From an uncultured Candidatus Saccharibacteria bacterium (GTDB lineage Bacteria; Patescibacteriota; Minisyncoccia; Phycocordibacterales; WO2-35-19), in assembly GCA_964392285.1 (NCBI GenBank), contig CAYMOW010000002.1:1-64000 (forward strand): a stretch of 64,000 nt of DNA, given 5' to 3'. Made by a program: the position numbers and the translations under genes. The notes beneath the pieces are model-generated. The model was given only the letters and a program-made list of their open reading frames with translations. It did not search any database and was not told the DNA's origin. Positions 5,175 to 58,211 of the stretch are shown here, piece by piece (positions within the stretch are counted from its first letter, which is position 1; each line of letters begins with the position of its first letter).

Positions 5175-5257
5175 GCGTCGGTGGTAGAGTGGTCAATTAC
5201 AACAGACTGTAAATCTGTCGGCTTCGGCCTACGCAGGTTCGAATCCTGCCCGGCGCA
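5175..5257 (+). tRNA. tRNA-Tyr (anticodon GTA), long variable arm
   Basis: Folded by hand: acceptor GCGTCGG/CCGGCGC, D-arm GTAG-AGTGGTCAA-TTAC, anticodon stem ACAGA/TCTGT with loop CTGTAAA, variable arm CGGCTTCGGCCTAC, T-arm GCAGG-TTCGAAT-CCTGC. CCA is not encoded. Confidence 0.85.
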
Positions 5258-12706: not shown

Positions 12707-12726
12707 CAAGTCTCCCCCCCAGCACA
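12707..12726 (+). repeat. direct repeat of the tRNA-Leu(TAG) 3' end (CAAGTCTCCCCCCCAGCACA)
   Basis: 20-nt exact copy of 12558..12577, about 130 nt downstream of the tRNA. The 12205..12700 region also carries three copies of a GCCGGAGCG...GCGAGGCGGG module and AAAATTAT[CG][CG]GTGA[CT]GAC modules. Confidence 0.6.
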
Positions 12727-12768
12727 AATGCAAAACTCGCCTTTTGGGCGAGTTTTGCATTTTGTGAT

Positions 12769-13094
12769 CCTCATTCTCATAAGCCGAATTCTGTTTCTTT
12801 GCAATAATTTATCTAGGTCCTAGATTGCTCTAGGACTCGAGCGGCACTCCCCTCGATTGCTTTCGGGGCACGGCCTTGCACAGAAGTAAGAGTTTAGTCG
12901 TTGCACCCGTATGTTGCCATACGATTACTCCACAAGGGAGCTCCTTGCCTTTCGGCTTGGACGTCACTGTTCGCATCTCGCGCCTCACGGCGGACGGGCA
13001 TTACCCGCTACTTGGCTCTCCAATCGAAATTGGAGCTGTGTTCGGACTTTCCTCTCCGACTAAAACGTCGGAGCTATTGCTCGGAATGAGAATC
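12769..13094 (-). ncRNA. rnpB: RNase P RNA (rnpB) candidate
   Basis: The minus-strand RNA contains the universal CR-I-like GAGAGGAAAGUCCGAAC near its 5' end and a CR-V-like AACAGAAUUCGGCUUAU near its 3' end. The P4 partners are GUCCGAA and UUCGGCU. The terminal P1 pairing is UCUCAUUC...GAGAAUGAG. The whole is about 326 nt and GC-rich. Confidence 0.6.
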
Positions 13095-13205
13095 TAGACA
13101 TATTCTATCACATATTTTCAACTTCGCAAATTTTGCTTGCATTTTTTCCCTTTTAGTGATATAATTGAAGACGGTAGTTATTTTGACAATTTAGGGAGGT
13201 AAGAA

Positions 13206-14252
13206 ATGGCTAGCGCACCACCAATTGAACTTCAAGAAGGGGCAGTGCCCAGACCAAGATATCAACTCTTCACTGATTGCCCCCAAGATTGGTTCTTGGT
13301 GGTCGTACGTGGGGGGGACATTCACAAGATCGTCCATTCTGTAAAAGGGTGGCGAGTAAACGAAGAGTTTGAGTTCGTAACAGAAGATGCTACGAACAAA
13401 AACTTGATCACCCCTCTTCGAGCCCTGACAGGCTACGAATTTGTGGGTGTCCCGGGTTTCCAGGGGCTAAAAGTAATAAAGTTCGCCTGGAATAAATACT
13501 GGCGAACAGATGAAAACAGTCCAATCTACGGGGTGGTCGCTCACGACCCACAACTCGTTTATGTGTTCCCGTTCGAATCTCAATACCCTCTTACGTACGA
13601 AGGAATTGATACGGTGGCACAAAACCGAATAAAACCGGAAGAGTTGTCGCTCGTAGCGGTAACTTTTGTGGTCACGGTCCGAGTCAGGATGCTACGACCA
13701 CGGATCGCACTCGCTACAAACATCGATTGGTTCGGGGGGGTGCTTATTCCAAAACTCCAAGGAGTCCTGAAGGATTTCGCTGGAGAGAAAAGTTACGACG
13801 AACTGATTCGGGGGGCAAGGAAGACGGTTACGCAAGAACTCGAAGAGTTTGTGATGGGGACCAACCAGACCCCTAGTAAATTTCGGGAGAAAATTCTTCA
13901 AACGGCAGGAGTCGACATCATCGACTTTAGCCTAGTAGACATCAAACCCAACAAGGCCTTCGAAGACGCCCAAAATGAATTGGCTTCCGAACAACGAAAG
14001 GCCTCCGGGGTCATCGTCACAGCCGAAGCGGCCAAACAAGCCAAGATCCTGGAGGGAGAAGGACTGGAAGCATACGAAGCCGCGATAGGTAGGGGTAAGG
14101 CAACCGCGATAAAAGCCATCCGTGAAGCTGCGGGTTCCGACTCAGAGACCTACTTCAAGTGGGACGGGATGAAAAGTTCGAAACTGGGTACCTACGCGGA
14201 AGGTACCAGCAAGGCTAGCATCCTGGTCGGCCCTGACGGCAGACCTATCTAG
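13206..14252 (+). CDS. SPFH/band-7 (stomatin-prohibitin-flotillin-HflK/C-like) domain protein, no TM segment
   Basis: Strong RBS AGGGAGG. The C-terminal half matches the band-7 pattern (GVDIIDFSLVDIKPNKAFEDAQNELASEQRKASGVIVTAEAAKQAKILEGEGLEAYEAAIGRGKAT); the N-terminal roughly 150 aa are unique. Confidence 0.55.
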   Translation: MASAPPIELQEGAVPRPRYQLFTDCPQDWFLVVVRGGDIHKIVHSVKGWRVNEEFEFVTEDATNKNLITPLRALTGYEFVGVPGFQGLKVIKFAWNKYWRTDENSPIYGVVAHDPQLVYVFPFESQYPLTYEGIDTVAQNRIKPEELSLVAVTFVVTVRVRMLRPRIALATNIDWFGGVLIPKLQGVLKDFAGEKSYDELIRGARKTVTQELEEFVMGTNQTPSKFREKILQTAGVDIIDFSLVDIKPNKAFEDAQNELASEQRKASGVIVTAEAAKQAKILEGEGLEAYEAAIGRGKATAIKAIREAAGSDSETYFKWDGMKSSKLGTYAEGTSKASILVGPDGRPI

Positions 14253-14378: not shown

Positions 14379-15509
14379 ATGCTTTGGATGATATTGGTAT
14401 GGACAGTGGCCATAATCCTAGCGATTGGGGCCAAGATTTTACTGCCACCCGTTATCGGGTGGCGCAACAAACTCATCACGACTAGGCAGGCGTGGCAAAT
14501 CCCAATAGTGGTGGCCGGTTGTGTATCCGTAATACGGGTGATCGCTCACCTGATCGGGTCACAATGGCAAACAATCTGGTGGATAGTAGGTTTAGTAGTC
14601 GTTGGATATCCGATTTATCGCATCATACGACGCGAAAAGGTTTCGAACCTCGCCCAAAGGTATAAGACAGACCTTACAATAGTGGGCGTCTCGACCTTTA
14701 CAGTGGTCGCCGCCAACTGCCTGCTATACTTTGTTACCAGTGCCGATCCAAGAATTTGGGCTTGGTACTATGGCAATGCGTATTTCTTCTGGGCATGGAA
14801 CTTTGGCTGGATCGTAGTGGCTTTCCTCCATTCCAAAAGAGACGACAAGAACATCGTGATTCCGATCGCGGTTACGGGCCGTAATTGGATTATGGTGATT
14901 TTGATTGCAGGACTCCTGATAAATTATGTGTTTTATCCTTCTTTACCGAGATGGGTCAACACATTGACTACCAGCGGTCTGGGTAATCTCGGCACCAACT
15001 TCGGTCAGCCTGACCTGCTCCGGTTAACGCCGGAGGAGCACAAGGCGACACACACAGCGTTGATGAAAACTCCGTTCGCGGAGCGGAAGGTGCTCTGGGC
15101 CCTCTACGAGTGCAACCCAGAAAACAAGGCCTTTCGTCCCAAGGATGGGGACCTTCCTGCCCTCAAGACCTACCAGTCAAAAGGCGCACAAGCCTTCGGC
15201 GATGCCTGTGTCGAGAAATTGACGCGGGCACGGCAAACGTTTGTCCTCGCCGTGGTGGAGGCCACGAGCGAGAAGTGGAGCGATCCAGTAATTTTACCGG
15301 AAGCGCTCTTGTACGAGATTGTGTACTCCTCCGAAGAGAGGAGACACAGGACCACAGTCCTGGGGCCCGATGATGGCCAGCAAATGGAGCTGGCCGAAGG
15401 ATACACGGTCCCGCCCTTCAAAACAGTCGGGGCCAAGTTCAAGTCCAAGGCCGGGACGGTGCGTGTCACCGTCGAATACCGGCCAACGAAAGGAGCGAGC
15501 TCGCAATGA
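14379..15509 (+). CDS. polytopic membrane protein (about 6 TM) with a C-terminal soluble domain, hypothetical
   Basis: Strong RBS GAAGGGAGG. Trp-rich hydrophobic N-terminal 200 aa followed by a charged, roughly 170-aa tail. Same strand as the SPFH gene, 126 nt downstream of it. Confidence 0.6.
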   Translation: MLWMILVWTVAIILAIGAKILLPPVIGWRNKLITTRQAWQIPIVVAGCVSVIRVIAHLIGSQWQTIWWIVGLVVVGYPIYRIIRREKVSNLAQRYKTDLTIVGVSTFTVVAANCLLYFVTSADPRIWAWYYGNAYFFWAWNFGWIVVAFLHSKRDDKNIVIPIAVTGRNWIMVILIAGLLINYVFYPSLPRWVNTLTTSGLGNLGTNFGQPDLLRLTPEEHKATHTALMKTPFAERKVLWALYECNPENKAFRPKDGDLPALKTYQSKGAQAFGDACVEKLTRARQTFVLAVVEATSEKWSDPVILPEALLYEIVYSSEERRHRTTVLGPDDGQQMELAEGYTVPPFKTVGAKFKSKAGTVRVTVEYRPTKGASSQ

Positions 15510-15553: not shown

Positions 15554-15823
15554 TTACGACTCGCCGAAGAATGATGGCACAGGAATACCGAAGGTGTTTA
15601 GCACCAAACGCAAGATGCCGTAGACGCTAAACATTACAAACATCCCAATGATACCGTAGAACACATTCATCTTCTTCTTTTCCAAATCCGAACCATCGGC
15701 TCCAGCTATGAGCCCGATAATGCCGTAAAAGAAGAATATAGTCGCCACCACAAAACCCAGAACGATAATCGGATTGATGATGTAGGTGGCTATTTTGCCG
15801 AGCAGGTTCGTAACAGCTGGCAT
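15554..15823 (-). CDS. small two-TM membrane protein, paralog 1 of a seven-member family (VirB2/TrbC-pilin-like?)
   Basis: Helix-charged loop-helix architecture: FFFYGIIGLIAGADGSDLEKKKMNVFYGIIGMFVMFSVYGIL. Confidence 0.65.
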   Translation of the reverse strand: MPAVTNLLGKIATYIINPIIVLGFVVATIFFFYGIIGLIAGADGSDLEKKKMNVFYGIIGMFVMFSVYGILRLVLNTFGIPVPSFFGES

Positions 15824-15826
15824 GTC

Positions 15827-16177
15827 TTATCTTGGAACAAGTTGACGAACATTAAAACCAGGACCCGTACCTGTGTCAATTCCCAAAGCATCACCGAGGA
15901 ATGCTACCAAACCCCAGACAGCAGCCATGACAAAGATGGCCACAACGCCCCAGATCATGGTCTTCTTGGCCTGATCTGCTTTGTGTTCGCCACCAAAGAT
16001 ATACATAGCCAAGCCCCAGAAGAAGAAGAGCATTGCCAAGGCAAAGATGATTGGGATCAGGATATTTATGATATCACCAATCGATTCTGCCAAGCTTTTG
16101 ACATTATTAAGCTCCTGACCAAAAGCCAAAACTGGCGAAGCCAGAGCAACTATTCCGAATGAAATTAATTTTTTCAT
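15827..16177 (-). CDS. small secreted two-TM protein, paralog 2 (signal peptide + pilin-like core)
   Basis: MKKLISFGIVALASPVLAFGQ signal peptide, then core FFWGLAMYIFGGEHKADQAKKTMIWGVVAIFVMAAVWGLVAF. Confidence 0.7.
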   Translation of the reverse strand: MKKLISFGIVALASPVLAFGQELNNVKSLAESIGDIINILIPIIFALAMLFFFWGLAMYIFGGEHKADQAKKTMIWGVVAIFVMAAVWGLVAFLGDALGIDTGTGPGFNVRQLVPR

Positions 16178-16286
16178 TATTTTGTTTTTAATAATTTATT
16201 TAATAACCAAACGACCTAATAATTGAATACATTATAACACTTTCATCCATCTTTTCCAAACTAATTATGTTAATTATGTTTAGATT

Positions 16287-16634
16287 CTAGTAATTTATTC
16301 TTGGCATATTAATGGTATTGCGTTCATCAATACCCAATTCTTGCCTAAAGAACCTCACAAGACCCCAAACAGAAGATATCACAAAGAGCGCAACGACACC
16401 CCAAACCATCACATTTTTCCCCTCTGCTTTGCCATCACCCTCAGATTTGATGTACTTGGCCACACCCCAGAAGAAATAAAGCAAAGCCAAAGTGAAAGCT
16501 ATCGGAATCAAATAAGCACCTACTATGTTATCAACACTGCTTATTATTCTTTCTGTCCCTTGTAAAGCCTGCGCACCTACCACCGTCGGTAAAACTAACA
16601 AAGCCGGCACAATAGAATATTTGAAAAATTTCAT
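16287..16634 (-). CDS. small secreted two-TM protein, paralog 3
   Basis: Signal peptide MKFFKYSIVPALLVLPTVVGAQA, core YFFWGVAKYIKSEGDGKAEGKNVMVWGVVALFVISSVWGLVRF. Confidence 0.7.
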   Translation of the reverse strand: MKFFKYSIVPALLVLPTVVGAQALQGTERIISSVDNIVGAYLIPIAFTLALLYFFWGVAKYIKSEGDGKAEGKNVMVWGVVALFVISSVWGLVRFFRQELGIDERNTINMPRINY

Positions 16635-16649
16635 ATAATTATAAATTTA

Positions 16650-16952
16650 TTAATTATTTTTAACTTCTACTTTGATTGGAATGTTGGAAAGGCCGAGTTC
16701 GCTTCGGATAAAGGCCACAATACCCCAGACCGAAAAGGCCACAAAGAGTCCGATGATACCCGAAACCATAATCCGCCTACCCTCTTCGGCCGCCTTGTCG
16801 CTACTTGCGCCCTCCTTGATATATTTTGCCACACCCCAAAAGAAATACAACAAGCAAAGTGAAAAAGCCAGTGGTATGAGTATGCTGTTCACTATGCCGA
16901 ATGCTGAATCTATGAGGTCGCCAAGTTTCATCCCGTTAGTGAAAAATGGCAT
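16650..16952 (-). CDS. small two-TM protein, paralog 4
   Basis: Core YFFWGVAKYIKEGASSDKAAEEGRRIMVSGIIGLFVAFSVWGIVAFI; about 85% identity to paralog 3 in the core. Confidence 0.7.
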   Translation of the reverse strand: MPFFTNGMKLGDLIDSAFGIVNSILIPLAFSLCLLYFFWGVAKYIKEGASSDKAAEEGRRIMVSGIIGLFVAFSVWGIVAFIRSELGLSNIPIKVEVKNN

Positions 16953-17087
16953 TGCTTTTTTGAAAAGCCACCATTTTATTTTTTAGTTTGTAATTCATAT
17001 AAATATCGACTTAATATATTATAACTCGATTGAAAAAGCTTTTCTATGCCATTTTCTACTACGGGATTCATATTACAATTTTCAATC

Positions 17088-17369
17088 TTAAATCTTAAAA
17101 TTGATTTGCGGTATGCCGACCGGACTGTTCCAACCAAACTCTGAGCGCAAAAAGACCATAATGCCCCAGATAGTCGTCAGCACAAAGAGACCGATTATAC
17201 CCCAGATGAGCAGGTTTTTGCTCTCTTTGAGCTCCTTCTCATTGCCCGCAGCTCGAATAAACCGCCCCACTCCAAGCACAAAGACCAAAAAGGCCACCAC
17301 GCCCAAAAACGGAATAATCTTCATTCCGAGGTCGGTGAACATCTTTACTACTTCGCCAAGGTTTTTCAT
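17088..17369 (-). CDS. small two-TM protein, paralog 5
   Basis: Core VFVLGVGRFIRAAGNEKELKESKNLLIWGIIGLFVLTTIWGIMVF. Confidence 0.65.
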   Translation of the reverse strand: MKNLGEVVKMFTDLGMKIIPFLGVVAFLVFVLGVGRFIRAAGNEKELKESKNLLIWGIIGLFVLTTIWGIMVFLRSEFGWNSPVGIPQINFKI

Positions 17370-17381
17370 AATTTGTCTTTT

Positions 17382-17795
17382 TTATGAGCGCAATTGGTCT
17401 ATCGTGCCACCTATCGCTTCAGATATAACCCAAGCACCGAGGAGTATAGCTGCCCCGATCACTCCATAAAGCAAGGTGTCGTGGGCTGTTTTGATTTTAC
17501 CCGTATCGCCTCTTGCTGTGACATAAAGAAAGCCCGCATACATTATAACCAAAACAGCAATTACTCCGCCTATAGGTATCAGTATTTCGTTTATAACCGT
17601 CTTTATAAAGTCCATCAGATTATCGCCACCCTTGAATGGATTGTCTATTTTTATATTGAATTTGACTGGACTTGGAGCCGGAGTAACCTGTGGACTTGGG
17701 GCTGGAGTAATTTGTGCCCACAAAACCACTGGAACAAAGGCAGAAAATATAACCACAACAACAAAAAGATTTTTGAATAAATTTTTGATCTTCAT
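17382..17795 (-). CDS. small secreted two-TM protein, paralog 6 (Pro/Thr-rich linker)
   Basis: Signal/TM MKIKNLFKNLFVVVVIFSAFVPVVLWA, the repeat PAPSPQVTPAPSP, and core YAGFLYVTARGDTGKIKTAHDTLLYGVIGAAILLGAWVISEAIGG. Confidence 0.65.
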   Translation of the reverse strand: MKIKNLFKNLFVVVVIFSAFVPVVLWAQITPAPSPQVTPAPSPVKFNIKIDNPFKGGDNLMDFIKTVINEILIPIGGVIAVLVIMYAGFLYVTARGDTGKIKTAHDTLLYGVIGAAILLGAWVISEAIGGTIDQLRS

Positions 17796-18199
17796 TTGTT
17801 TATTATATTAGTATAATCGCCTTTGAAAAGTGCACCAACGATGGCTTCGGTTACGAGCCAGGCCGAAAGTATGATGGCGAGTCCGATGCCAACTTTTTTC
17901 ATCATTGCAATCGATTCGCTTCTTTTGCCTGAATTGTCCGGATTGAGCATCATATTCAAGCCAGCCCAAGCAAAGACTCCAGCCGAAACCGGCACGGCAT
18001 ACTTGATCAGCTCTCTGATAATATTGTTTATAAGGGTTACAAAATCATCAAAACCACATTCCTGGTTCAGCCCGCCCGAATTGTTGCGCTGGCCACATTC
18101 GGGGATAATGCCACCTCTATTGGTCTGTGCCAGAGCCTGGCTTGGCACAAGCACCAAGAGCATAAGACAGACGAATAGTATTTTGGTTGAAGTTTTCAT
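17792..18199 (-). CDS. small secreted two-TM protein, paralog 7
   Basis: Signal peptide MKTSTKILFVCLMLLVLVPSQALA, core WAGLNMMLNPDNSGKRSESIAMMKKVGIGLAIILSAWLVTEAIVG; its stop overlaps the start of paralog 6 by 4 nt. Confidence 0.65.
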   Translation of the reverse strand: MKTSTKILFVCLMLLVLVPSQALAQTNRGGIIPECGQRNNSGGLNQECGFDDFVTLINNIIRELIKYAVPVSAGVFAWAGLNMMLNPDNSGKRSESIAMMKKVGIGLAIILSAWLVTEAIVGALFKGDYTNIINK

Positions 18200-23242: not shown

Positions 23243-25105
23243 TTATTTAGTTAAATATTCTATGTTGTATTTTATAAGATCATAAGCTTCTATTGTTATT
23301 GCTTTCTTTTTCAGGAGCAACTGCAATTCAGTCATAAAAAGCTTCACCAAAATTTTATTAACCTTTTTGTCAAAAACCTCTACTCTCTTTAATTTTACTG
23401 AACCATCAGGAAGTTTTTCTTTGACTACCTCTATTTTCTTATTGAATTTGATAGCACCATTAACTTGTTTTATCAGACTATCACGCACCTTTTTATCTTT
23501 AATCCAACCAAGATCGAAAGATTTGTTTATATCTCTTATCAGAGTTTCAAGGGTTATTTCTTCAACATCACTCTCCGGCAACGTGATTTTTGGTTCGCCA
23601 ATTTCTGCCGTCGGTTCACTTGCAATATAATCAACCACTACTTCATATTCAACCTTTTCTCCTTCAACAATATCTTTTTTCACAGTTTCGATCTTGTCTG
23701 TATCAGAATCAGATAACGCTACCGCCATATGATATTTACCATCAGAAGTTCCGACTAGTTCCACCTTGTAATCTCCCGCCAACCCATTAGGAATAATTAT
23801 CATTTTCAACCCCTCAGGATTACTTTCTCCTGTATAAATAGCTCCAGGTATACTATTGGTGTTTTTGGTTATAACTCTGCCTTGCGGATCTGTAATTTTG
23901 ACTTCAACCGGTGAAGCAAACCAAAAAGAAGTCAGATTATCTGGTTCTGGCGGTGGCACATAAGCAACGGATGGTTGTGGTAAAGAAAGAGTGGAGAAGA
24001 TATCGGAAATGGCTTTGGTCGGCAAATCACCGTGTTTCGAATCTACCTCAATGTGTTTTAGGAATTCACTGGGATTTAATTGGGCGTAAGCAGTCGGTAA
24101 AATTTTTGCAAACAATCTTTGCCAAAAATTCTGCATCAGAACTGGTGGAAATATGTCAATCCCACCAAAAGACGCACTGAGAGCCAGTACTCTATTATCA
24201 CCTTCGGTCGTATCTCTGATTGGGGTAATTGGCTCTGGTACTCCATCTACCCAAAGTTTAGTTTCCGAAGCACTCCTTGGGACAATCGGGATACTTTCTA
24301 TTGTGTCTTGACCTTTACCTGCAACTGTCAGAATGCCTCCGACATTTTGTAACTGCATTGTTGAACTATTAAGATTTAGGTTCTCTAGAAAATAATTCCT
24401 GCCTTGTTGAAGATTCTCATATGAGATCAATTCCCCATTCTCATCTTTAAGAAAATTATATAGCGGTAAAAGTTCCCCTATTGATGGAATAAAGCTGTGG
24501 ATGGTGTCGTAACTATCAGCAGTCTGAGCGGTCGCGGTGGTCATATACCAAAGATACAACCCCACCCCAGCCCGTGTTAGTTTATCCCAATTCTCTGGCA
24601 CAACACCACCTTCCCATAATACATAAACTTCAGAGCTACCCCAATTTGGAGTACCTAATAAAATAAGCTTGTTCACATCGTTCCTGTAATTATGACTTTG
24701 GATGTAACGCCTAGTCACCAAACCACCCATAGAGTGAGCGATTATATTCACTTTGCCAGTCGGAGAATTAGCAAGAGCCTTATCTATTGTTGGTATAAGA
24801 TAATCGGTAGCAGAATTTATATTGCTCTGCCTCCAATCATAAAAAGCAATGAAAAGTGTTTTGTCTTTTTCATAACCCGCTTTCTCTAGGGCATCGATCA
24901 TATTATCCCAGGTTTTATCAGATGGAAAGAAATCCCAACTCCCGCTACCATTCCTCTGTAGCATCACTTCCCAATTCCAAGACCCCATAATCCCGGGCAC
25001 TATGACTATTGGTTCTTTTGCTTCTTGAGCAAAAACTTGTTGACAAGGGTTAAATACAAAACTTGTCAAAAACAATAAAATTACAACCTTATGAAATATA
25101 TTCAT
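23243..25105 (-). CDS. secreted alpha/beta-hydrolase lipase/esterase with a C-terminal extension
   Basis: Signal peptide, IVIVPGIMGSW, and the GxSxG nucleophile elbow IIAHSMGGLV. The C-terminal 250 aa are Lys/Glu-rich. The region is AT-rich. Confidence 0.65.
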   Translation of the reverse strand: MNIFHKVVILLFLTSFVFNPCQQVFAQEAKEPIVIVPGIMGSWNWEVMLQRNGSGSWDFFPSDKTWDNMIDALEKAGYEKDKTLFIAFYDWRQSNINSATDYLIPTIDKALANSPTGKVNIIAHSMGGLVTRRYIQSHNYRNDVNKLILLGTPNWGSSEVYVLWEGGVVPENWDKLTRAGVGLYLWYMTTATAQTADSYDTIHSFIPSIGELLPLYNFLKDENGELISYENLQQGRNYFLENLNLNSSTMQLQNVGGILTVAGKGQDTIESIPIVPRSASETKLWVDGVPEPITPIRDTTEGDNRVLALSASFGGIDIFPPVLMQNFWQRLFAKILPTAYAQLNPSEFLKHIEVDSKHGDLPTKAISDIFSTLSLPQPSVAYVPPPEPDNLTSFWFASPVEVKITDPQGRVITKNTNSIPGAIYTGESNPEGLKMIIIPNGLAGDYKVELVGTSDGKYHMAVALSDSDTDKIETVKKDIVEGEKVEYEVVVDYIASEPTAEIGEPKITLPESDVEEITLETLIRDINKSFDLGWIKDKKVRDSLIKQVNGAIKFNKKIEVVKEKLPDGSVKLKRVEVFDKKVNKILVKLFMTELQLLLKKKAITIEAYDLIKYNIEYLTK

Positions 25106-25120
25106 TGTAAATTTTAATAA

Positions 25121-25603
25121 TTATAATATTTTTCCAGACGCATATCCCAAACCAAGTACCATAACGAAAAAGAAAATTGCCACAAAAACAGCCAGCAAAA
25201 TAAGTGCAACAACCAAAGAAATTACGAAATTCTTTAAGGTAAATTTACCGTGCTTTAGAACTATGTAGCAATAAAAAACCAACACTGACCAACCTAAAAC
25301 TGATATCGGTATCAAATCAAACACCTTGTTTTCTATAACACTTTGCAGATTATAACCATTTGAAAAATAATTATGAGTCAGTTCTGTTGCAGACCAAAAT
25401 CCAAACCAAGCACAAACCACAAAAGTCACAAGAGATGTTAGATAGGCTAGGATTACCTGCCACCAAGAGATTGATAATTTTCTTTTCCATTTTCTAAATC
25501 CTAAGTATGCAAAAGGTAAAAAAATAAAAAATGCTGATAGCAAGAAAAATACCCACTCGATAACGAGTATCAATGTAGGCCCCGCCCTAAAATAGGTTTC
25601 CAT
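25121..25603 (-). CDS. hypothetical membrane protein (about 4 TM)
   Basis: Hydrophobic ORF, AT-rich, no recognisable domain. Confidence 0.45.
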   Translation of the reverse strand: METYFRAGPTLILVIEWVFFLLSAFFIFLPFAYLGFRKWKRKLSISWWQVILAYLTSLVTFVVCAWFGFWSATELTHNYFSNGYNLQSVIENKVFDLIPISVLGWSVLVFYCYIVLKHGKFTLKNFVISLVVALILLAVFVAIFFFVMVLGLGYASGKIL

Positions 25604-25666
25604 TTGAGGTTATACACTTATGGTAGCACAACGACTTGATTCGTTTTACAAGCTTATCCACATAAT

Positions 25667-26761
25667 TTATTCAGCACAGATAACATAATGCAGATATTCT
25701 GTCGTCTTGCTTGCTGTATAATTCCTGTTTTCTGATTTATCAGCCCTAAAACGACTATGCTCTTTTGTAAAACATCCATATTTACCCCGGAGACTCATTA
25801 TTTCTCTTATATCATCGGGGGTCATCAAACCTTCATTGTTATAACTCAAAAATATATATTTGACTTTGGCCTTCAATATCAAATCTTTAAACGATTTTCT
25901 GACCTGGTTTTTTGAACAATACAAAGATTTCTGATCAGTATAATCTCGTAGACCAGTCTTCCCATATATTTTAGGATTATCATACCTAGCAATTGTCTCT
26001 AAAATATGATAATTCGTTGCATATTGACGATGATTATATGGTGGGTCAAGATATAAAACATCTCCGTTAATTTTTTCGACGATTTTATTTATATCCATAT
26101 TGAAAATTTCGTGATCTTGTTCATTAACAATCAATTCTGCTGGTTTCAAGATCAGACTACTTTGAGCTGTCTTTTTTAGATTCTTCAGGAAAGCTCCGTA
26201 GACGGATGCTGTGTTCGCATATTTATCAATCGATTCGACTAAACTAGCGATCAAAAAATAATATTCATCATCAGAGATTAAATCTTTCTCTTTCCAATTT
26301 TCAATTTTTTGACGAATAGCGTCGCACCGCATTCCATTTTCATTTGAAAAATATTGTCTTGATTCTTCTTTGTCTTTGGTTTCTCCGAGACAATAATTTT
26401 TATAGATAAAGCCTTTTACACCCTCCAAATTTGATAGATATTCACAAACAAAATCTTTACGTTTTTCTGTGTCAATATTTTTTAGACCAGCAATTTCTTT
26501 TGTTAGTTTTATAAATTTTAATTCCTTATGATTCCCAACATAGTGCCTATTCAATACATAACTGTAATATTGAATATCGTTAGAAATTATTTTGTAACCT
26601 CTTTTCTTGAAATAACTACCGACAACTCCAGTTCCAGCAAATAAGTCACAAAAAACCTTGCAGTTTTTATCAACTACTTTATTAATTGATTCTTCCAAGA
26701 ATTCTAACAAAGATAGTTTACTGCCGATATAATTCATAAATTCATGATAACATACCCGCAA
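25667..26761 (-). CDS. Dam-family (alpha-class, D12) N6-adenine DNA methyltransferase
   Basis: N-terminal NYIGSKLSLLEFL and FCDLFAGTGVVG (motif I); C-terminal LYLDPPYN (motif IV DPPY). Confidence 0.8.
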   Translation of the reverse strand: MRVCYHEFMNYIGSKLSLLEFLEESINKVVDKNCKVFCDLFAGTGVVGSYFKKRGYKIISNDIQYYSYVLNRHYVGNHKELKFIKLTKEIAGLKNIDTEKRKDFVCEYLSNLEGVKGFIYKNYCLGETKDKEESRQYFSNENGMRCDAIRQKIENWKEKDLISDDEYYFLIASLVESIDKYANTASVYGAFLKNLKKTAQSSLILKPAELIVNEQDHEIFNMDINKIVEKINGDVLYLDPPYNHRQYATNYHILETIARYDNPKIYGKTGLRDYTDQKSLYCSKNQVRKSFKDLILKAKVKYIFLSYNNEGLMTPDDIREIMSLRGKYGCFTKEHSRFRADKSENRNYTASKTTEYLHYVICAE

Positions 26762-26799
26762 TAAAATCTATACGAAAACATAGGCTTTTGTGGTAGTAT

Positions 26800-27549
26800 T
26801 TGCCTATGTTAAAAAACGACTTAAATAATGAACGAATTGGCGTCTCTGCTGAAATTTCAATTGCAGATATTTTTGAAATTCCTATCAGTGACAACTATCG
26901 AAATCGCGGAGCACAAGATATTACAAACACCATCAAACCTATCATTGCCGATATCTTCAACTTAAATAATATTCCTCCACCAATCAAACATGTTGCGGAA
27001 AATCAAAATACTATAGATTTTATACTTGAAGGCAATAAAACTTTATCCGTAAAAACAAATAAACAAAAATTGGGCAAAGCTGCACCACAAAAAATTGGCC
27101 AGGCATCATCAAACACTTGGTTTGCGATTTTAGCAGAACGATTAGGTATAGCATATATACCGACAGCTTATCCTGAAAAAGTCAAACTTTTTAAAATAAT
27201 TGCACTAACAAGGATCGAGGAACTACTTTTTATTTACTGGGAATACATGTTCGATTGCGATTTTTTGATCCATATTTTCAATATCGTTGATTCTAATAAC
27301 AACCTTACTCGTGATCCGAAATACATAGTAACTAAGAAAACCAGTAGCCCTATTTGGGATCCTGCAAAAATTACATTTACAAGGCCAACTGTATCCGAGT
27401 GGAATGAGAGCAATACTGTAAAATACGAATACGATGGTGTGGCAATAGGTGAATTTCAAGTCCACAACAATAGGGACAATTTTAAATTTCGTTTCAATAT
27501 GGCCGGTATTTTCAAGTTAATGACAGAAGGTCGTCTCAGTTTTTCTTAA
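26800..27549 (+). CDS. putative type II restriction endonuclease (hypothetical, sits between two methyltransferases)
   Basis: 249-aa ORF with no recognisable family. It is divergent from the Dam-like MTase and convergent with the second MTase; AT-rich. Confidence 0.4.
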   Translation: MPMLKNDLNNERIGVSAEISIADIFEIPISDNYRNRGAQDITNTIKPIIADIFNLNNIPPPIKHVAENQNTIDFILEGNKTLSVKTNKQKLGKAAPQKIGQASSNTWFAILAERLGIAYIPTAYPEKVKLFKIIALTRIEELLFIYWEYMFDCDFLIHIFNIVDSNNNLTRDPKYIVTKKTSSPIWDPAKITFTRPTVSEWNESNTVKYEYDGVAIGEFQVHNNRDNFKFRFNMAGIFKLMTEGRLSFS

Positions 27550-28321
27550 AAACCATTATGTATTCGTGTTTGAATATATAATAATCACTTGATAACGCGC
27601 GGTATCTCCAAATTCCTTCTTTATTCTGTTTGCCACGATTACCAACCATATTCTTTATTATAATACTTTTCAGAATTAGACCTAGTTTTTGAGCCTCATT
27701 CATACAATAAAAACCCAATGGTACCCACTTCCCCATTTTATATGCATCACCAATAACAATCGCCAAATATCTACCATTTTCCAAAACATCTATTGTATTC
27801 TTTAAAACTTCAGCAAATTTTCCTAAAAACTCTTTCAAGGATTTTGCGTTTGATAAATCATCTTTTAAGTCACTAAACTTTATAATATCCGCATATGGTG
27901 GGTGCAATATGGCCATTTGCACATTTTTCTTTTTGTGTTTTTCTAAAATATCTTTTACTTTTTCAAAAGTTTGGATTTTTGTGCTGTCACCTATAATTAG
28001 CTCAGAAAAATTACCTTTCGCATCAATATTCTCACTGACATAATCAACGAGTTTTTTCTGTATATCGATCCCAATAAAATTCCTGTTTAGACTCTCTGCC
28101 TCATAAGCAGTGGTTCCACTTCCTAAAAATGGGTCCAGGATTGTTTCGTTCTTTTTTGTGTACCTAGATATTAACTGGTGAGGAATTTGTGGAACAAAAT
28201 TCCCATGGTAAAAACCGCTATGTTTTCCTGACTTGTCTCTTTCTGAAATAATCCAGAGACTATCCGTCCAAATTTCTGATTCTTTCCACTTACTTAAATC
28301 AAGATCATTAAAAATTGGCAT
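27536..28321 (-). CDS. DNA methyltransferase, N4/N6 amino-MTase (PF01555-like)
   Basis: HGNFVPQIPHQLISRY (motif X-like), ILDPFLGSGTT (motif I), ILHPPYADI (motif IV-like). The table ORF extends to 28441, but those 40 extra codons read through tRNA-Glu; ATG at 28321 (MPIFNDL) is used instead. Confidence 0.7.
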   Translation of the reverse strand: MPIFNDLDLSKWKESEIWTDSLWIISERDKSGKHSGFYHGNFVPQIPHQLISRYTKKNETILDPFLGSGTTAYEAESLNRNFIGIDIQKKLVDYVSENIDAKGNFSELIIGDSTKIQTFEKVKDILEKHKKKNVQMAILHPPYADIIKFSDLKDDLSNAKSLKEFLGKFAEVLKNTIDVLENGRYLAIVIGDAYKMGKWVPLGFYCMNEAQKLGLILKSIIIKNMVGNRGKQNKEGIWRYRALSSDYYIFKHEYIMVFKKN

Positions 28322-37214: not shown

Positions 37215-37298
37215 ATTACACCACAATTTTCAAATGGAAGAGGGTCACCCTCTTCCATTTTGATTTTATGGTCTAGTTTTATTTAAAAATATGCTTGG

Positions 37299-37371
37299 TG
37301 CCGAGGGGCGGGCTCGAACCGCCGACCTATCGCTCTTCAGGCGAGCGCTCTACCAACTGAGCTACCTCGGC
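37299..37371 (-). tRNA. tRNA-Phe (GAA)
   Basis: Reverse complement GCCGAGGTAGCTCAGTTGGTAGAGCGCTCGC-CTGAAGA-GCGATAGGTCGGCGGTTCGAGCCCGCCCCTCGGCA. Confidence 0.8.
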
Positions 37372-51999: not shown

Positions 52000-52050
52000 A
52001 AACTTATAATAACACCAAACTAGTTAGTAAAAAATTCTCAAACTCACAAA

Positions 52051-52467
52051 CTAAGAGTTGAGGTAAGTAATGGTCAATTGCAAAACAGTGGCAAAAGAGA
52101 CCCACAAGAGATATGGAATGTTCGCATAAACTACCCACCTCAGATCACTAGAACCTTGAGGCACAAGTCGCCATATTAGGACCATCCCCCAGACCAAAGT
52201 AGCCAGAACCAGCAAAATATCGATCGAGGCCAAAAGATTGTTTTGCAGACCAAATTGAATCGGTGTAAAAGCAAAATTAAAAAACAGATTCAAAACAAAA
52301 GGCAACGCCACAAATCGCGGAATCTTGCGCTTCAAGGCAGAGTAAAAGACTTTACCAAAAGAAATGGCAATGATGGCATAAAGTACCGTCCACACCGGAC
52401 CAAAGACCCAACTCGGCGGCGCCCAAGATGGTTTGATCAAATCTATATACTTAGTTGTTTCGTTCAT
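52051..52467 (-). CDS. tspO: TspO/MBR-family tryptophan-rich sensory protein
   Basis: PSWAPPSWVFGPVWTVLYAIIAISFG: the canonical TspO N-terminus and a 5-TM layout. Confidence 0.85.
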   Translation of the reverse strand: MNETTKYIDLIKPSWAPPSWVFGPVWTVLYAIIAISFGKVFYSALKRKIPRFVALPFVLNLFFNFAFTPIQFGLQNNLLASIDILLVLATLVWGMVLIWRLVPQGSSDLRWVVYANIPYLLWVSFATVLQLTITYLNS

Positions 52468-52515
52468 GTTATTTTATAACTTACATAAATTTGATAGTAT
52501 TGTGATGATTTGAGT

Positions 52516-53346
52516 TTACGCCGTGTTGAGAGATACCGCAACTTTTGCTTTCAAATATTCGCCGACTATAACATCGATTCCTACTGGATTTTTATACCAA
52601 GAATCTCGTTTATATTGATCTCCCGTACCGCAATTTACACGAATCAACCTAGCATCATCGGGAAGATATTTTTTGAAATGAGCCCAACCCCTTCTTTGGG
52701 TATAAGGAGAATTCACCAAAACGATTGAATTGTAAGAAATTCCTTTTTCATCAAGAATATTTAACGAACTCCTTACATTATCAGGGACAGTAATTGATTT
52801 GTCTTCAATAATAATTGCTTTTTCTGGCACACCTTTATCCATGGCCATTTGAGCATAAACTTCTGCCTCGGTCGGAGCAGAGCCCTCTCCATAATACGGA
52901 CCTCGACCACTGACGACAATAGTTTGTGATATCTCTTGTTTATAAAGCTCAATAGCTTTTTCAATTCTAAATGGAGTTTTGGCACCAAAAACAAATATCA
53001 AATCCGATTTTTCTGGCACATCTTCCTCGGCAAGATAATCGTAAACACTGTTAAGTACTTCTACGTCTTCGGGTAACAATTCTTTGTTAAGAATCTTGCC
53101 TTTTAACTGCCCTACAATACCTTTTCCTTTTTCTAACAAATTTTCATTACCTACGTCTTCTTTTGAATATGTCGTGGCCAAAATTTGAGCATCCAAACCA
53201 AAATGTTCAGCCAGTTTAATCAATGGAGAAAAATCAAAATAATGAAGTTCTTCCTTTCCTTTAGGAAAACCTCTTTTTGCTTCCGCATCGAGGATAGTCT
53301 TGAGTTCTTCTGAGTTTGGCAGTTGACTAAAATTATCTCTTTTCAT
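52516..53346 (-). CDS. DUF218/YdcF-ElyC-like domain protein
   Basis: LIFVFGAK...IVVSGRG...EAEVYAQMAMDKGVPEKAIIIEDKSITVPDNVRSS...LVNSPYTQRR. Confidence 0.6.
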   Translation of the reverse strand: MKRDNFSQLPNSEELKTILDAEAKRGFPKGKEELHYFDFSPLIKLAEHFGLDAQILATTYSKEDVGNENLLEKGKGIVGQLKGKILNKELLPEDVEVLNSVYDYLAEEDVPEKSDLIFVFGAKTPFRIEKAIELYKQEISQTIVVSGRGPYYGEGSAPTEAEVYAQMAMDKGVPEKAIIIEDKSITVPDNVRSSLNILDEKGISYNSIVLVNSPYTQRRGWAHFKKYLPDDARLIRVNCGTGDQYKRDSWYKNPVGIDVIVGEYLKAKVAVSLNTA

Positions 53347-53410
53347 CTCTTACATTATAGACTAATATTATACGATTAAATTTTGCTAGTTGTTTGAGAG
53401 AGTATACAGA

Positions 53411-54229
53411 CTATTTTAGACCAAGTACCTTTTCAACAAAAGGCTTAAATTTATTGAACTCTGCAGCAACATCTGGGCCTATCTCCACTATCGACTCTTC
53501 ATATTTTATTTCTTTTTTTAAACTTCTTTCTACATAATCGTCGTGGATTTCCCCCAACCATGCAGATAGTTTAAAAATAGAATAAAACAGCCAATGTAAG
53601 TTTCCGCCACAATTCTCAGCAGCAGGGACTTGCATAAGATTCGATAATAATCGAAATCTTTTTCTTAATTTATGAAATTGTTCTATTGGAAGATTGTTTG
53701 CCTGTACTAGTGTTGCAATGTGATCTAAAATACTTTTCGCATATTTTTTGAATTCTTCTGTATCTATAAAATTTACTGAAAAATCTAGGTCGCTCAAACT
53801 ATCTAAAATACCTTCCCTAATTTCTGGTTGAGATGATATCCAGTAACTGTCATTGTACTCACCCAAAAGAAACAAAAAGTGATTTAATTTTTCTCCACAT
53901 TTATGGCTGGTGTCGGTAAATCTATATAGAGCTTTCAGGATCAGCCCATAACGCCTAACCTGTTTTAAATAAGAAAAGCTTTCTTCATTTGCTTCAAGTT
54001 TAATTTCTCGTACAAACCTCTCCTTATCAAAAATAAATTCAAATGCTTTTCTTGCTTCTTCAAAAATATGTTCACGATATTGTTTATCTTCAAAAATATT
54101 TGAAAAATCAACTTCATCAGGATTCAATTCTGGTCTTGTTCTAATATCAAAAAAACGAGAGACCAGGATTGGTTCAGTCTGTATGTTCTCTAAATTATTT
54201 TTCATATTTGATATATTATCAGGATTCAA
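53411..54229 (-). CDS. hypothetical protein (272 aa), AT-rich
   Basis: ORF only; I recognise no family. Confidence 0.4.
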   Translation of the reverse strand: MNPDNISNMKNNLENIQTEPILVSRFFDIRTRPELNPDEVDFSNIFEDKQYREHIFEEARKAFEFIFDKERFVREIKLEANEESFSYLKQVRRYGLILKALYRFTDTSHKCGEKLNHFLFLLGEYNDSYWISSQPEIREGILDSLSDLDFSVNFIDTEEFKKYAKSILDHIATLVQANNLPIEQFHKLRKRFRLLSNLMQVPAAENCGGNLHWLFYSIFKLSAWLGEIHDDYVERSLKKEIKYEESIVEIGPDVAAEFNKFKPFVEKVLGLK

Positions 54230-55989: not shown

Positions 55990-56018
55990 ATTGTTTTGTA
56001 TTAATTTGAAATTTTAAA

Positions 56019-56330
56019 TCACTTTTTAGGTTTACCTAGGCCCGTGGTAGTGACGAATTGTTCCATATAATTCAAGTAATCCTGACTTCCAACTTGTATT
56101 TTCAAATCATCAAAAGCCTCTTTCAGAATTTGCGAAGCGTCTTCCATATTCAAGGCTGGCTCGTAAGAATCATCTTCTGCCCCATCACCTTCTTCATCTT
56201 TTGACTTACCAAACAAATTCTGCCGCATTCTCTTTTCGAGATATGCTCGCGCATCCCTTTCCGCTCGTTCGTTTATCTCCCTCAACCGGTCCGCACCACC
56301 TTCCAAACTTGGTTTAATAGGTTCTTCCAT
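56019..56330 (-). CDS. hypothetical acidic protein (103 aa)
   Basis: ORF; charged and helical; no family recognised. Confidence 0.4.
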   Translation of the reverse strand: MEEPIKPSLEGGADRLREINERAERDARAYLEKRMRQNLFGKSKDEEGDGAEDDSYEPALNMEDASQILKEAFDDLKIQVGSQDYLNYMEQFVTTTGLGKPKK

Positions 56331-56407
56331 ATTTCTTATATTAGGATTAAATTTTGCTGGCCATCTGGTACGAAGTCGGAACAGTTCTATGTATTTAATT
56401 CAAGTTT

Positions 56408-57493
56408 TTACCTGCCTATTTGTTCTCGCAACATTTTAATAAGTTCGGTTACAAGTTGTGAGTCATATTTGCCACTAACTTCTTTTGTTCTAGGTTCAGA
56501 AAATAGTATATCTAAACCTTTATCAAGAATTTTCTCCCCTCTCTCTTTGTGGGTAGTAATAAGGTTGTTCATAGTATTCATTGATGAATACTTAAACATA
56601 TAATTATTATAAAGTCGTTTGTGAAATAAAAACTGATTGGCAGCAAAAAGGGTTAGGTACGCGGGCACAATTAAACTAGTTATACGCAATATAGCCATAC
56701 CAACTTTTATTTCCTGAGTTTTTGTTGCTGCTTTAATAATGAATTCGTATGTTACCCATCCGGTCATAAAAGCAAAAATAAACGAGGCTAGAAGCCATAG
56801 CCAACTACCACCCAAATCATATTCAGAAGGAAATTTCTTCATTTTTTCTTTTATAGATTCAGGAGCATTATTTTTGCCTATCCAAGCACGAATTGTTTTA
56901 TGTTCACGAGCCATATCATGGAATGCTTCAGCTTGTTCCTCTATTGTTTTTCCGTTAATGTCGCGCCGAATATGTAACCATTTCTCTGCTCCACCGATTG
57001 CTTCTTGTATGTCAGTAGATTTAGTAGCAAGTGAATTAGCAACACTTTCTGCCTCTGTAAAACGATTTATTTTTTGAACAAGAATGCTTTCAGCAATTTT
57101 TGCAGCATTTAAATCTACATATATACCAGTGTTCTTAATCGAGGAGTTAAGTGAGTGCAATTGCGATACCGCATTATGATGTTGGGTGGTAATTTGATCA
57201 TAACCAAGAGTGGGTAAACCATGATTGTTATAAGAATTTATAAATCCAGATAACTGATTGTCGATGTTTCTAATATCAAGCGGTGAAGCTGAATCAAGAA
57301 CAGAAATGTTAGTTTTGATATCTTGCAAAAGATTAACCACAATTTGTACCAAGTGTTGGACATCTTCGGGAGTTAAATTATTCCAATTTTGTATACTAGG
57401 ATTTTTGGAGTACAACTTACTAAGATCAAATTTTAAAATCTGATCAATTTTTTCCAATATCTGTGCTTTTACTTCTGAGGTTGCCATCTGCAA
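56408..57493 (-). CDS. hypothetical protein with a soluble N-terminal domain and a C-terminal 2-TM module (SLATT-like effector architecture?)
   Basis: About 230-aa soluble region, then WLWLLASFIFAFMTGWVTYEFII and MAILRITSLIVPAYLTLFAANQFLF, plus a roughly 80-aa tail; AT-rich. Confidence 0.5.
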   Translation of the reverse strand: MQMATSEVKAQILEKIDQILKFDLSKLYSKNPSIQNWNNLTPEDVQHLVQIVVNLLQDIKTNISVLDSASPLDIRNIDNQLSGFINSYNNHGLPTLGYDQITTQHHNAVSQLHSLNSSIKNTGIYVDLNAAKIAESILVQKINRFTEAESVANSLATKSTDIQEAIGGAEKWLHIRRDINGKTIEEQAEAFHDMAREHKTIRAWIGKNNAPESIKEKMKKFPSEYDLGGSWLWLLASFIFAFMTGWVTYEFIIKAATKTQEIKVGMAILRITSLIVPAYLTLFAANQFLFHKRLYNNYMFKYSSMNTMNNLITTHKERGEKILDKGLDILFSEPRTKEVSGKYDSQLVTELIKMLREQIGR

Positions 57494-57956
57494 TTATAGT
57501 TTCTATTATTCTTAATTTGTTTTTAAAATTATCTCCAACCTCTACAACTTCTAGTAGTAAATTCGTATCTTGAAACAACTGTTTTTTAAAGTGGTCGGAA
57601 CTAATTCGTTTGGGGTCAAGGTGCGATTTGCCATTAAGTTCTATAGCAAAGATGGGTTTAAAATACTCGTTGCACACAAGAAAGTCAACATGCCGAGACC
57701 AGATTTTATTCCGCCATTTATAATCTGAATTTGTTGGTTCGATAAAATCTATAATTCTTGTTTTTGGGAAAATATGATATTCAGGCGGCAAAGACTTTTT
57801 GAGTTCAAAAAATAGAGCTTCCTCACTCTTATTGAAAAAATTTTGTCTTAGTTTGTAAGGTAATTTTTCTTCACCACTTTCAAACTTTAAGCCTTTAAAA
57901 ATAGCCAGCAAAATTACAAGAACAATTATTGCTATAGCAAAATAAATCATAACCAA
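57444..57956 (-). CDS. membrane-anchored DUF2726-like (restriction-endonuclease-fold/NERD-like) protein
   Basis: N-terminal TM, and HVDFLVCN...PIFAIELNGKSH (a D...E-x-K-like motif). Confidence 0.5.
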   Translation of the reverse strand: MVMIYFAIAIIVLVILLAIFKGLKFESGEEKLPYKLRQNFFNKSEEALFFELKKSLPPEYHIFPKTRIIDFIEPTNSDYKWRNKIWSRHVDFLVCNEYFKPIFAIELNGKSHLDPKRISSDHFKKQLFQDTNLLLEVVEVGDNFKNKLRIIETIIADGNLRSKSTDIGKN

Positions 57957-57968
57957 ATTATATCACTT

Positions 57969-58211
57969 CTATTCTTGTGTATTTTCTCCCGGCACAGGTA
58001 TCTTGTTTCTCCTAAAGTATTCCTCGTCAAAATTTTCGTCTGGATACCTAACACCTTCTTTTCTGGTGTTTCTCTCAATCCTTTCCAAAATCCTTATCGC
58101 TTTATTTACTTTCCAATACCAAGTCAAAATTTCTCTTATTAAAAAGAAGAATATTATTCCTCCGATAAGATATACGAGAGAGTCGCTAGATAAAAGATTA
58201 TTTAAATTCAT
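57969..58211 (-). CDS. hypothetical small membrane protein (80 aa)
   Basis: ORF with a single TM. Confidence 0.35.
   Translation of the reverse strand: MNLNNLLSSDSLVYLIGGIIFFFLIREILTWYWKVNKAIRILERIERNTRKEGVRYPDENFDEEYFRRNKIPVPGENTQE

Follow-up and report, generated by a model that had tools for sequence, protein, structure and literature searches.

The 64-kb stretch of DNA analysed here as a whole (the window) carries on its minus strand, at 13094..12764, a gene that we identify with very high confidence as rnpB, which specifies the catalytic RNA of RNase P in a bacterium of the Patescibacteria (CPR). RNase P RNA is an essential ribozyme that processes tRNA precursors at their 5' ends. The class A model of Rfam (RF00010) matches 13092..12764 (-) from end to end (model positions 1-367) with 111.7 bits and an E value of 2.4e-33. 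Among the models of the RNase P clan it matches best, and no competing Rfam family turned up when the region was scanned permissively. The curated gathering score of RF00010 is 100, and the window RNA lies only 12 bits above it. The CR-I motif GAGGAAAGTCCG occurs once in the 64-kb window, at 13054..13043 (-) (chance expectation 0.02), as does the CR-V motif ACAGAATTCGGCTTAT, at 12794..12779 (-) (chance expectation 0.00), and the two are in the correct order with a spacing of about 260 nt. The unconstrained MFE fold (z -4.0) recovers P1, P3, a hairpin at the position of P5.1, P8, P9, a hairpin designated H3, P16 and P18, and the threaded structure shows complementarity in every helix. The features are collected in Table 1.

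The sequence-only reading had placed an RNase P RNA at 12769-13094 on the minus strand, adjacent to a tRNA cluster, with CR-I near the 5' end and a CR-V-like motif near the 3' end, and these assignments hold: the full-length RF00010 match exceeds the gathering score, the coordinates fall within a few bases of the gene, and each motif is unique in the window. Of the two checks it proposed, covariance-model scoring gave the match at 13092..12764, and manual threading produced a structure in which P4 forms and all helices are complementary. The helices it had written out needed some adjustment. The pairing given for P4 (GUCCGAA/UUCGGCU) is right but needs a bulged U, as in AAG(U)CCGAA/UUCGGCUU, and the terminal P1 does form but not in the exact register given, its core being UUCUCAUUC/GAAUGAGGA, which can be extended to 11 bp (GAUUCUCAUUC/GAAUGAGGAUC). 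The same reading had suspected a reduced or atypical RNase P RNA of a streamlined lineage, and a reduced form in a CPR host is indeed what was found. It was mistaken, however, in describing the order of the conserved regions as deviating, since that order is canonical (CR-I, J11/12, GUGMAACG block, J5/15, CR-V); the actual deviation from the E. coli type lies in the set of peripheral helices.

Table 1. Features of the rnpB locus, from the promoter side to the 3' flank. Coordinates are those of the window.
Feature	Coordinates	Strand	Basis or pairing partner
Predicted sigma-70-type promoter: -35 TTGCGA, 16-nt spacer, TG-extended -10 TAGAAT	13102..13129	(-)	promoter scan
rnpB, RNase P RNA gene	12764..13094	(-)	~329-331 nt; RF00010 match
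P1 5' strand GAUUCUCAUUC	13084..13094	(-)	pairs with 12776-12766; 11 bp
P2 5' strand GCAAUAG	13074..13080	(-)	pairs with 12807-12801 UUAUUGC
P3 hairpin CUCCGAC GUUUUA GUCGGAG	13054..13073	(-)	threaded and MFE folds
CR-I GAGGAAAGUCCG	13043..13054	(-)	unique in window; fits invariant RF00010 consensus
P4 5' strand AAG(U)CCGAA, bulged U13046	13041..13049	(-)	pairs with 12788-12781
P5 5' strand CACA	13037..13040	(-)	pairs with 12882-12879 UGUG
P5.1-position hairpin CUCCAAU-UUCG-AUUGGAG	13018..13035	(-)	RF00010 insert state
P7 5' strand AAGUA	13009..13013	(-)	pairs with 12888-12884 UACUU
P8 hairpin GCGGG UAAUG CCCGU	12994..13008	(-)	97-99% paired, compensatory changes
P9 hairpin CGCC GUGA GGCG, GNRA loop	12981..12992	(-)	
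P10/P11 5' strand and J11/12 (CGAGAUGCG AACAGUGACG)	12962..12980	(-)	aligned to RF00010 ACAG block
Hairpin H1 UCC AA GCC GAAA GGC AA GGA	12942..12961	(-)	threaded structure and folding of relatives
Hairpin H2 GCUCC CUUGU GGAGU	12927..12941	(-)	compensatory changes in RNAalifold pairs
Hairpin H3 CGUAUG GCAA CAUACG, GNRA loop	12908..12923	(-)	threaded, MFE, RNAalifold
Conserved block GGUGCAACGACUAAACUC, lineage consensus GGGUGAAACGGCUAAAUCC	12890..12907	(-)	nearly invariant in MAFFT alignment
P15 GGC/GCC, 3x3 internal loop CGU/AGU, short P16 CCCC...GGGG	12843..12875	(-)	
P18 hairpin GUCCUAGA GCAA UCUAGGAC, GNRA loop	12817..12836	(-)	
CR-V ACAGAAUUCGGCUUAU, containing P4 3' strand 12788-12781	12779..12794	(-)	unique in window
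P1 3' strand GAAUGAGGAUC	12766..12776	(-)	pairs with 13094-13084
Strong hairpin directly 3' of the RNA	12723..12766	(-)	dG -27.4 kcal/mol, z -6.7

The position of the predicted promoter, together with the 11-bp P1 of the MFE fold, would place the 5' end of the RNA at G13094, and the predicted -10 element ends 7-8 nt upstream of this base, matching the consensus. At the other end, the start of the strong hairpin coincides with the last few bases of the RNA; the hairpin is directed towards a convergent tRNA-Leu gene and is probably a bidirectional terminator common to both genes. A consensus terminator scan made no call at this hairpin because there is no T-run after the stem, the U-run being located inside the stem. 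The roles of both flanking signals, as putative promoter and terminator, are read from their sequence.

The genes flanking rnpB include infB (coding for a short IF2 of 495 aa) and those for a class-V aminotransferase, a Band_7 protein and T4SS_pilin paralogues. The closest relatives of the IF2 among GTDB genomes are Patescibacteria, Paceibacterota and Saccharibacteria MAGs, at no more than 63% identity, which places the source of the window in CPR, in keeping with the T4SS_pilin paralogues nearby; an exact-sequence look-up of the IF2 gave no match. Between infB and rnpB are four tRNA genes (Cys, Leu, Lys and Leu). In the closest relative, a Patescibacteria MAG (locus L001, 63% IF2 identity), infB and the tRNA cluster are kept, and the rnpB homologue lies 1.7 kb further on in the opposite orientation (13160-13684, 525 nt). 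Its P5.1-position element is enlarged to about 120 nt and its P16 contains about 85 nt of inserted sequence, and it scores 67.5 bits, below the gathering score, so that default annotation would miss it. Among the IF2-based GTDB loci, L001 is the only one with rnpB in the flanks; at another of them, L003, the tRNA cluster is kept and no RNase P RNA was found within 3.6 kb. A crude motif search of the 64-kb window did not find rnpA or rpmH.

A metagenome scan with a J18/2-to-CR-V pattern, in which the variable regions were left unconstrained, returned 120 loci, about 30 of them with a hairpin at the P5.1 position and about 40 with a canonical type A J5/7. The window RNA and 29 relatives of the hairpin class (28 metagenomic loci without a taxonomic label, plus L001) were aligned with MAFFT, and the threaded structure was projected on the alignment. 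The projected structure has 83% of cells paired, versus 64% in column shuffles and 37-45% with slid partners, and changes on both sides are seen in 72 of 87 pairs across the 30 aligned sequences. P2, P3, P5, P7, P8, P9, P15, P16 and P18 are each well supported; the per-helix values, with P1 included, are 76-100%. The RF00010 scores of the relatives span 67-181 bits; for a set of 15 relatives scored with this model the values were 82-181 bits, three being below the gathering score. RNase P RNAs like that of the window thus sit at the edge of the Rfam detection threshold.

Within the catalytic domain, all nine counted pairs of P1 have compensatory changes, and its 76% pairing in the MAFFT alignment is to be read with the helix ends imperfectly aligned. 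P2 is 90% paired with both-side changes in six of seven pairs, the outer pairs of P3 are 97% paired with compensatory changes, and P5 is 92% paired, its inner pair showing compensatory changes. P15 (97% paired) and P16 (84%) both have compensatory changes, as does P18 (91% paired, both-side changes in 8/8 pairs). P16 is a short stem with a loop of 6-12 nt, and P17 is absent. The P4 helix consists of 8 pairs with the canonical bulged U, and two A-U pairs (AA/UU) replace the GG/CC of the Rfam consensus. Since the scan pattern already specified its sequence, P4 is invariant among the relatives, and the set carries no covariation information on it; this departure from the Rfam consensus is the sole covariation evidence for the helix. 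The joining regions J5/15, J15/18 and J18/2 read GCAAGG, GCUYGAG and CCUAGAUAAAU, respectively.

Two further observations concern the 3' half of this domain. Nine of the 30 aligned sequences (L030, L018, L077, L112, L127, L113, L120, L084 and L097) have a small P19-position hairpin after the 3' strand of P2 and before CR-V, where the window RNA has only AAAGAA. In L077, the apex of P16, CUAGAGCAAUCUGG, is nearly identical to that of P18, CUAGAGUAAUUUAG, and a P16 likeness is also seen in L024, which hints at a common GNRA-loop docking module or an internal duplication.

The hairpin at the P5.1 position stands where the 5' strand of P6 would be. It is formed in all 30 single-sequence folds (mean z -4.5), although among the relatives its sequences are unrelated, its size varies between 4 bp and over 100 nt, and its loop is not conserved. 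The segment from CR-I to P8 was also modelled by a 59-position covariance model, to which 77 matches were realigned. This structure-aware alignment is fitted to the tested structure and leans towards it (the single-sequence folds are independent), and in it the six modelled pairs of the hairpin are 90% paired, against 44-52% for slid partners, with both-side changes in 6/6 pairs and four to six pair types at each. No Watson-Crick complement of at least 4 nt was found between the J5/7 flanks and the P15/16 interior, either in the window RNA or in 26 of the 30 relatives, and P6, a hallmark of type A, is therefore taken to be absent. No P15.1/P18.0 partner was found either: the spacer between P15 and P18 is GCUYGA in 30/30 sequences, and in the window RNA it is GCUCGA(G), leaving no room for P15.1 or P15.2. 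Complementarity of L5.1 to the P15/16 interior, as an L5.1-L16 kissing contact would need, was observed in 8 cases versus 10 expected by chance.

In the specificity domain, P7 is 85% paired with both-side changes in four of five pairs, and P9 is 93-100% paired with both-side changes in all pairs. The P10 pair 117-202 is A-U in the window RNA, L001, L067 and L046, G-C in most other relatives, and U-A in L077, L127 and L103; J11/12 reads AACAGUGACG. Three tandem hairpins (H1-H3), two of them with GNRA loops, then precede the conserved GUGMAACG block. In L120, L084, L097 and L060, H1 runs uninterrupted for 10 bp up to a GAAA loop; its homology to P12 is provisional. In the cmscan alignment, the 3' strand of H2 and the following linker take the positions of the end of P12 and of J12/13, and H3 that of P13, yet H3 resembles the P14 of L033. 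A long-range GCC/GGC helix enclosing H1-H3 was proposed by RNAalifold and was rejected because its 5' bases belong to H1 and its 3' side is invariant.

The nearly invariant block that follows H3 is the sole UGAAA-type motif in minimal relatives. It consists of a J12/13-like UGMAA motif fused to J14/11 and the 3' strands of P11 and P10, and in L024 it is split by P13 and P14. With the UGCAACG and ACUAAAC blocks contiguous, nothing occupies the canonical P13/P14 site. About 22 of 30 relatives share the arrangement of three tandem hairpins and a subsequent RUGMAACGRCUAAAYYC block, which emerged from unconstrained folding in 20 of them and was assigned through homology in the other two. In six relatives one small hairpin stands in place of H1-H3, and L024 and L033 have the canonical order P12, UGAAA, P13, P14, CUAAA. 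The hairpins H1-H3 probably supply tertiary struts.

The 3' side of L15 is GGGGAGUGCC and is without GGU, the motif that pairs with the 3'-CCA of tRNA; GGU is kept at this position in only four of 30 relatives. Nine tRNA genes were found in the window (starting at 5175, 11805, 11942, 12087, 12494, 28332, 28501, 37296 and 58610), and only that for tRNA-Phe (37296-37371) encodes a 3'-CCA; in the other eight the discriminator base is followed by one C at most. The loss of GGU from L15 fits with tRNA genes that are, as judged from these sequences, mostly without an encoded CCA. An association of this kind was also pointed out in cyanobacteria and in two-thirds of CPR genomes (PMC8172020).

By published definitions, type A RNAs have P6, P16 and P17 and lack P5.1, P10.1, P15.1 and P15.2 (PMC7191817), and the hallmarks that separate the types are the P6 pseudoknot for type A and the L5.1-L15.1 contact for type B (PMC5066622). 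The RNA of the window shares with type A (RF00010; E. coli M1 RNA, Thermotoga maritima) the canonical order from CR-I to CR-V, helices P1-P5, P7-P11, P15, a short P16 and P18, the bulged U of P4, the GNRA loops L9 and L18, and a full-length alignment above the gathering score. It differs in lacking the P6 pseudoknot, P17 and the GGU of L15, in having the P5.1-position hairpin, an empty canonical P13/P14 site, three tandem hairpins before the GUGMAACG block and A-U for G-C pairs in P4, and in its length of 329-331 nt, versus a mean of 382 nt for bacterial RNase P RNA given in the SI of a PNAS 2026 survey (PMC12974513 SI). It is a type A derivative that departs from the definition in P6, P17 and the absence of P5.1 without becoming type B.

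Closer counterparts are found among CPR bacteria. Lui et al. 2021 (PMC8172020) describe many CPR RNase P RNAs that have neither P13, P14, P16 and P17 nor the UGG motif and that score under the Rfam thresholds, and the window RNA resembles these in its CPR host, in the loss of P17 and UGG/GGU, in the apparent loss of P13 and P14, and in a score near such thresholds. According to the SI of the 2026 survey, P6, P13 and P14 have been lost in much of CPR, often with a gain of ES1.1 (P5.1) and ES2.2.1 (P18.0) (PMC12974513 SI). The loss of P6 together with the gain of P5.1 is shared by the window RNA, whereas the P18.0 (P15.1) that often accompanies P5.1 in that SI is absent here and in 29/29 relatives. 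Some published CPR examples also lack P12 and P18, and the window RNA has both, given the provisional homology of H1 to P12. As losses of P6, P13, P14 and UGG and a gain of P5.1 are already published for CPR, the window RNA is of a known sort. In the text covered here, neither PMC8172020 nor the PMC12974513 SI describes an S-domain with three tandem hairpins, and a literature search on RNase P RNA in Patescibacteria gave no match. Outside CPR, the comparison extends to the cyanobacterial and plastid RNAs, which belong to another phylum. Cyanobacterial and plastid RNase P RNAs keep P6, P16, P17 and P13/P14. What they share with the window RNA is the loss of the CCA-binding GGU alongside tRNA genes mostly without CCA (the parallel is drawn in PMC8172020).

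Given a score barely above the Rfam gathering threshold and the loss of several type A helices, the locus might be taken for a decayed, non-functional rnpB remnant in a genome whose working RNase P comes from another locus. We consider such a pseudogene very improbable: the universally conserved blocks are all intact and every helix is complementary, about 30 independent relatives, scoring 67-181 bits, preserve this reduced architecture through compensatory changes, the gene has its own predicted promoter and closing hairpin, and reduced forms of this kind serve as the only rnpB in CPR genomes (PMC8172020). There is similarly little chance that the RNA is of type B (as in Bacillus subtilis and Geobacillus stearothermophilus; RF00011) or type C and not a type A derivative. 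It does share with type B the loss of P6 and P17 and a hairpin between P5 and P7, but it has no P10.1, with nothing inserted between P10 and P11, and neither P15.1 nor P15.2, only GCUCGA(G) separating P15 from P18, which leaves an L5.1-L15.1 contact without a partner. P15 also continues through an internal loop into a P16-like stem, the class A model is the best match within the clan, and L024 and L033 combine the P5.1-position hairpin with a canonical type A P13 and P14.

Far more remote than either of these is the possibility that the two motifs co-occur by chance, or that the region in fact codes for protein on the opposite strand. Two plus-strand ORFs antisense to rnpB do appear in the mechanical ORF list (73 aa, 12876-13097; 62 aa, 12901-13089), but the E value of 2.4e-33, motif chance expectations of 0.02 and 0.00, and covariation that tracks RNA helices and not codons stand against such an explanation, and it is already refuted by the RF00010 match and the covariation. 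Both ORFs are almost certainly spurious, though an annotation might wrongly list them as hypothetical proteins. For annotation, rnpB should be listed as an essential gene of this genome, and the ORFs overlapping it on the plus strand should not be called proteins.

As the rnpB of a CPR bacterium, the RNA would be transcribed from its own extended -10 promoter and would end at or near the strong downstream hairpin. Helices P1-P5, P15 and P18 would fold into the catalytic domain, where the bulged U and the catalytic metal sites would reside in the P4 pseudoknot, and the P5.1-position hairpin would take the place of the 5' strand of P6. The specificity domain, comprising P7-P11 and the J11/12 and GUGMAACG modules, would read the tRNA elbow and, with the RnpA protein, the RNA would cleave the 5' leaders of the pre-tRNAs encoded around rnpB. 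Catalysis, elbow recognition and the docking of GNRA loops are attributed to the window RNA by analogy with established knowledge of bacterial RNase P.

The locus holds a housekeeping RNA gene of an ordinary kind, whose form has been described before in this lineage, and it leaves general knowledge of RNase P unchanged. It provides a well-supported example of the trimming of RNase P RNA in CPR, with P6 exchanged for a P5.1-position hairpin, a loss of GGU that matches CCA-less tRNA genes, and a rearranged specificity domain. The residual interest lies in a P5.1 without its published partner element and in the three tandem hairpins before the T-loop-like block. It is possible, though we think it rather unlikely, that the window RNA and about 20 relatives form a coherent sub-architecture outside the A/B/C scheme, with P5.1 but without P15.1/P18.0 and with the P13/P14 struts replaced or moved. 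The struts may in that case have become three tandem hairpins (with GAAA, variable and GNRA loops) situated 5' and not 3' of the GUGMAACG T-loop block, and such a sub-architecture would represent an independent solution for bracing the specificity domain.

Several minor observations were made on the surrounding sequence and on related loci. Seven tandem genes for small membrane proteins occupy 15554-18199 (-). The Pfam scan of this array covered six of the seven genes, leaving out 17792-18199, and all six matched T4SS_pilin (PF18895), five of them reaching the curated cut-off and the sixth, a gene of 89 aa, scoring 23.0 against a cut-off of 26.6; one of the six also matches TrbC/VirB2. Arrays of T4SS_pilin paralogues are typical of CPR genomes. 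A predicted membrane protein of 376 aa, encoded at 14379-15509 (+), has no Pfam match. In two relatives, L055 and L030, a 16S rRNA gene (1-1188 and 1-238, respectively) lies about 3-4 kb from rnpB and might serve as a taxonomic marker for these contigs. The G+C content is low (0.32-0.37, versus a window average of about 0.45) at 24001-28000, 52001-54000 and 56001-58000, and these stretches may be acquired islands or AT-rich gene clusters.
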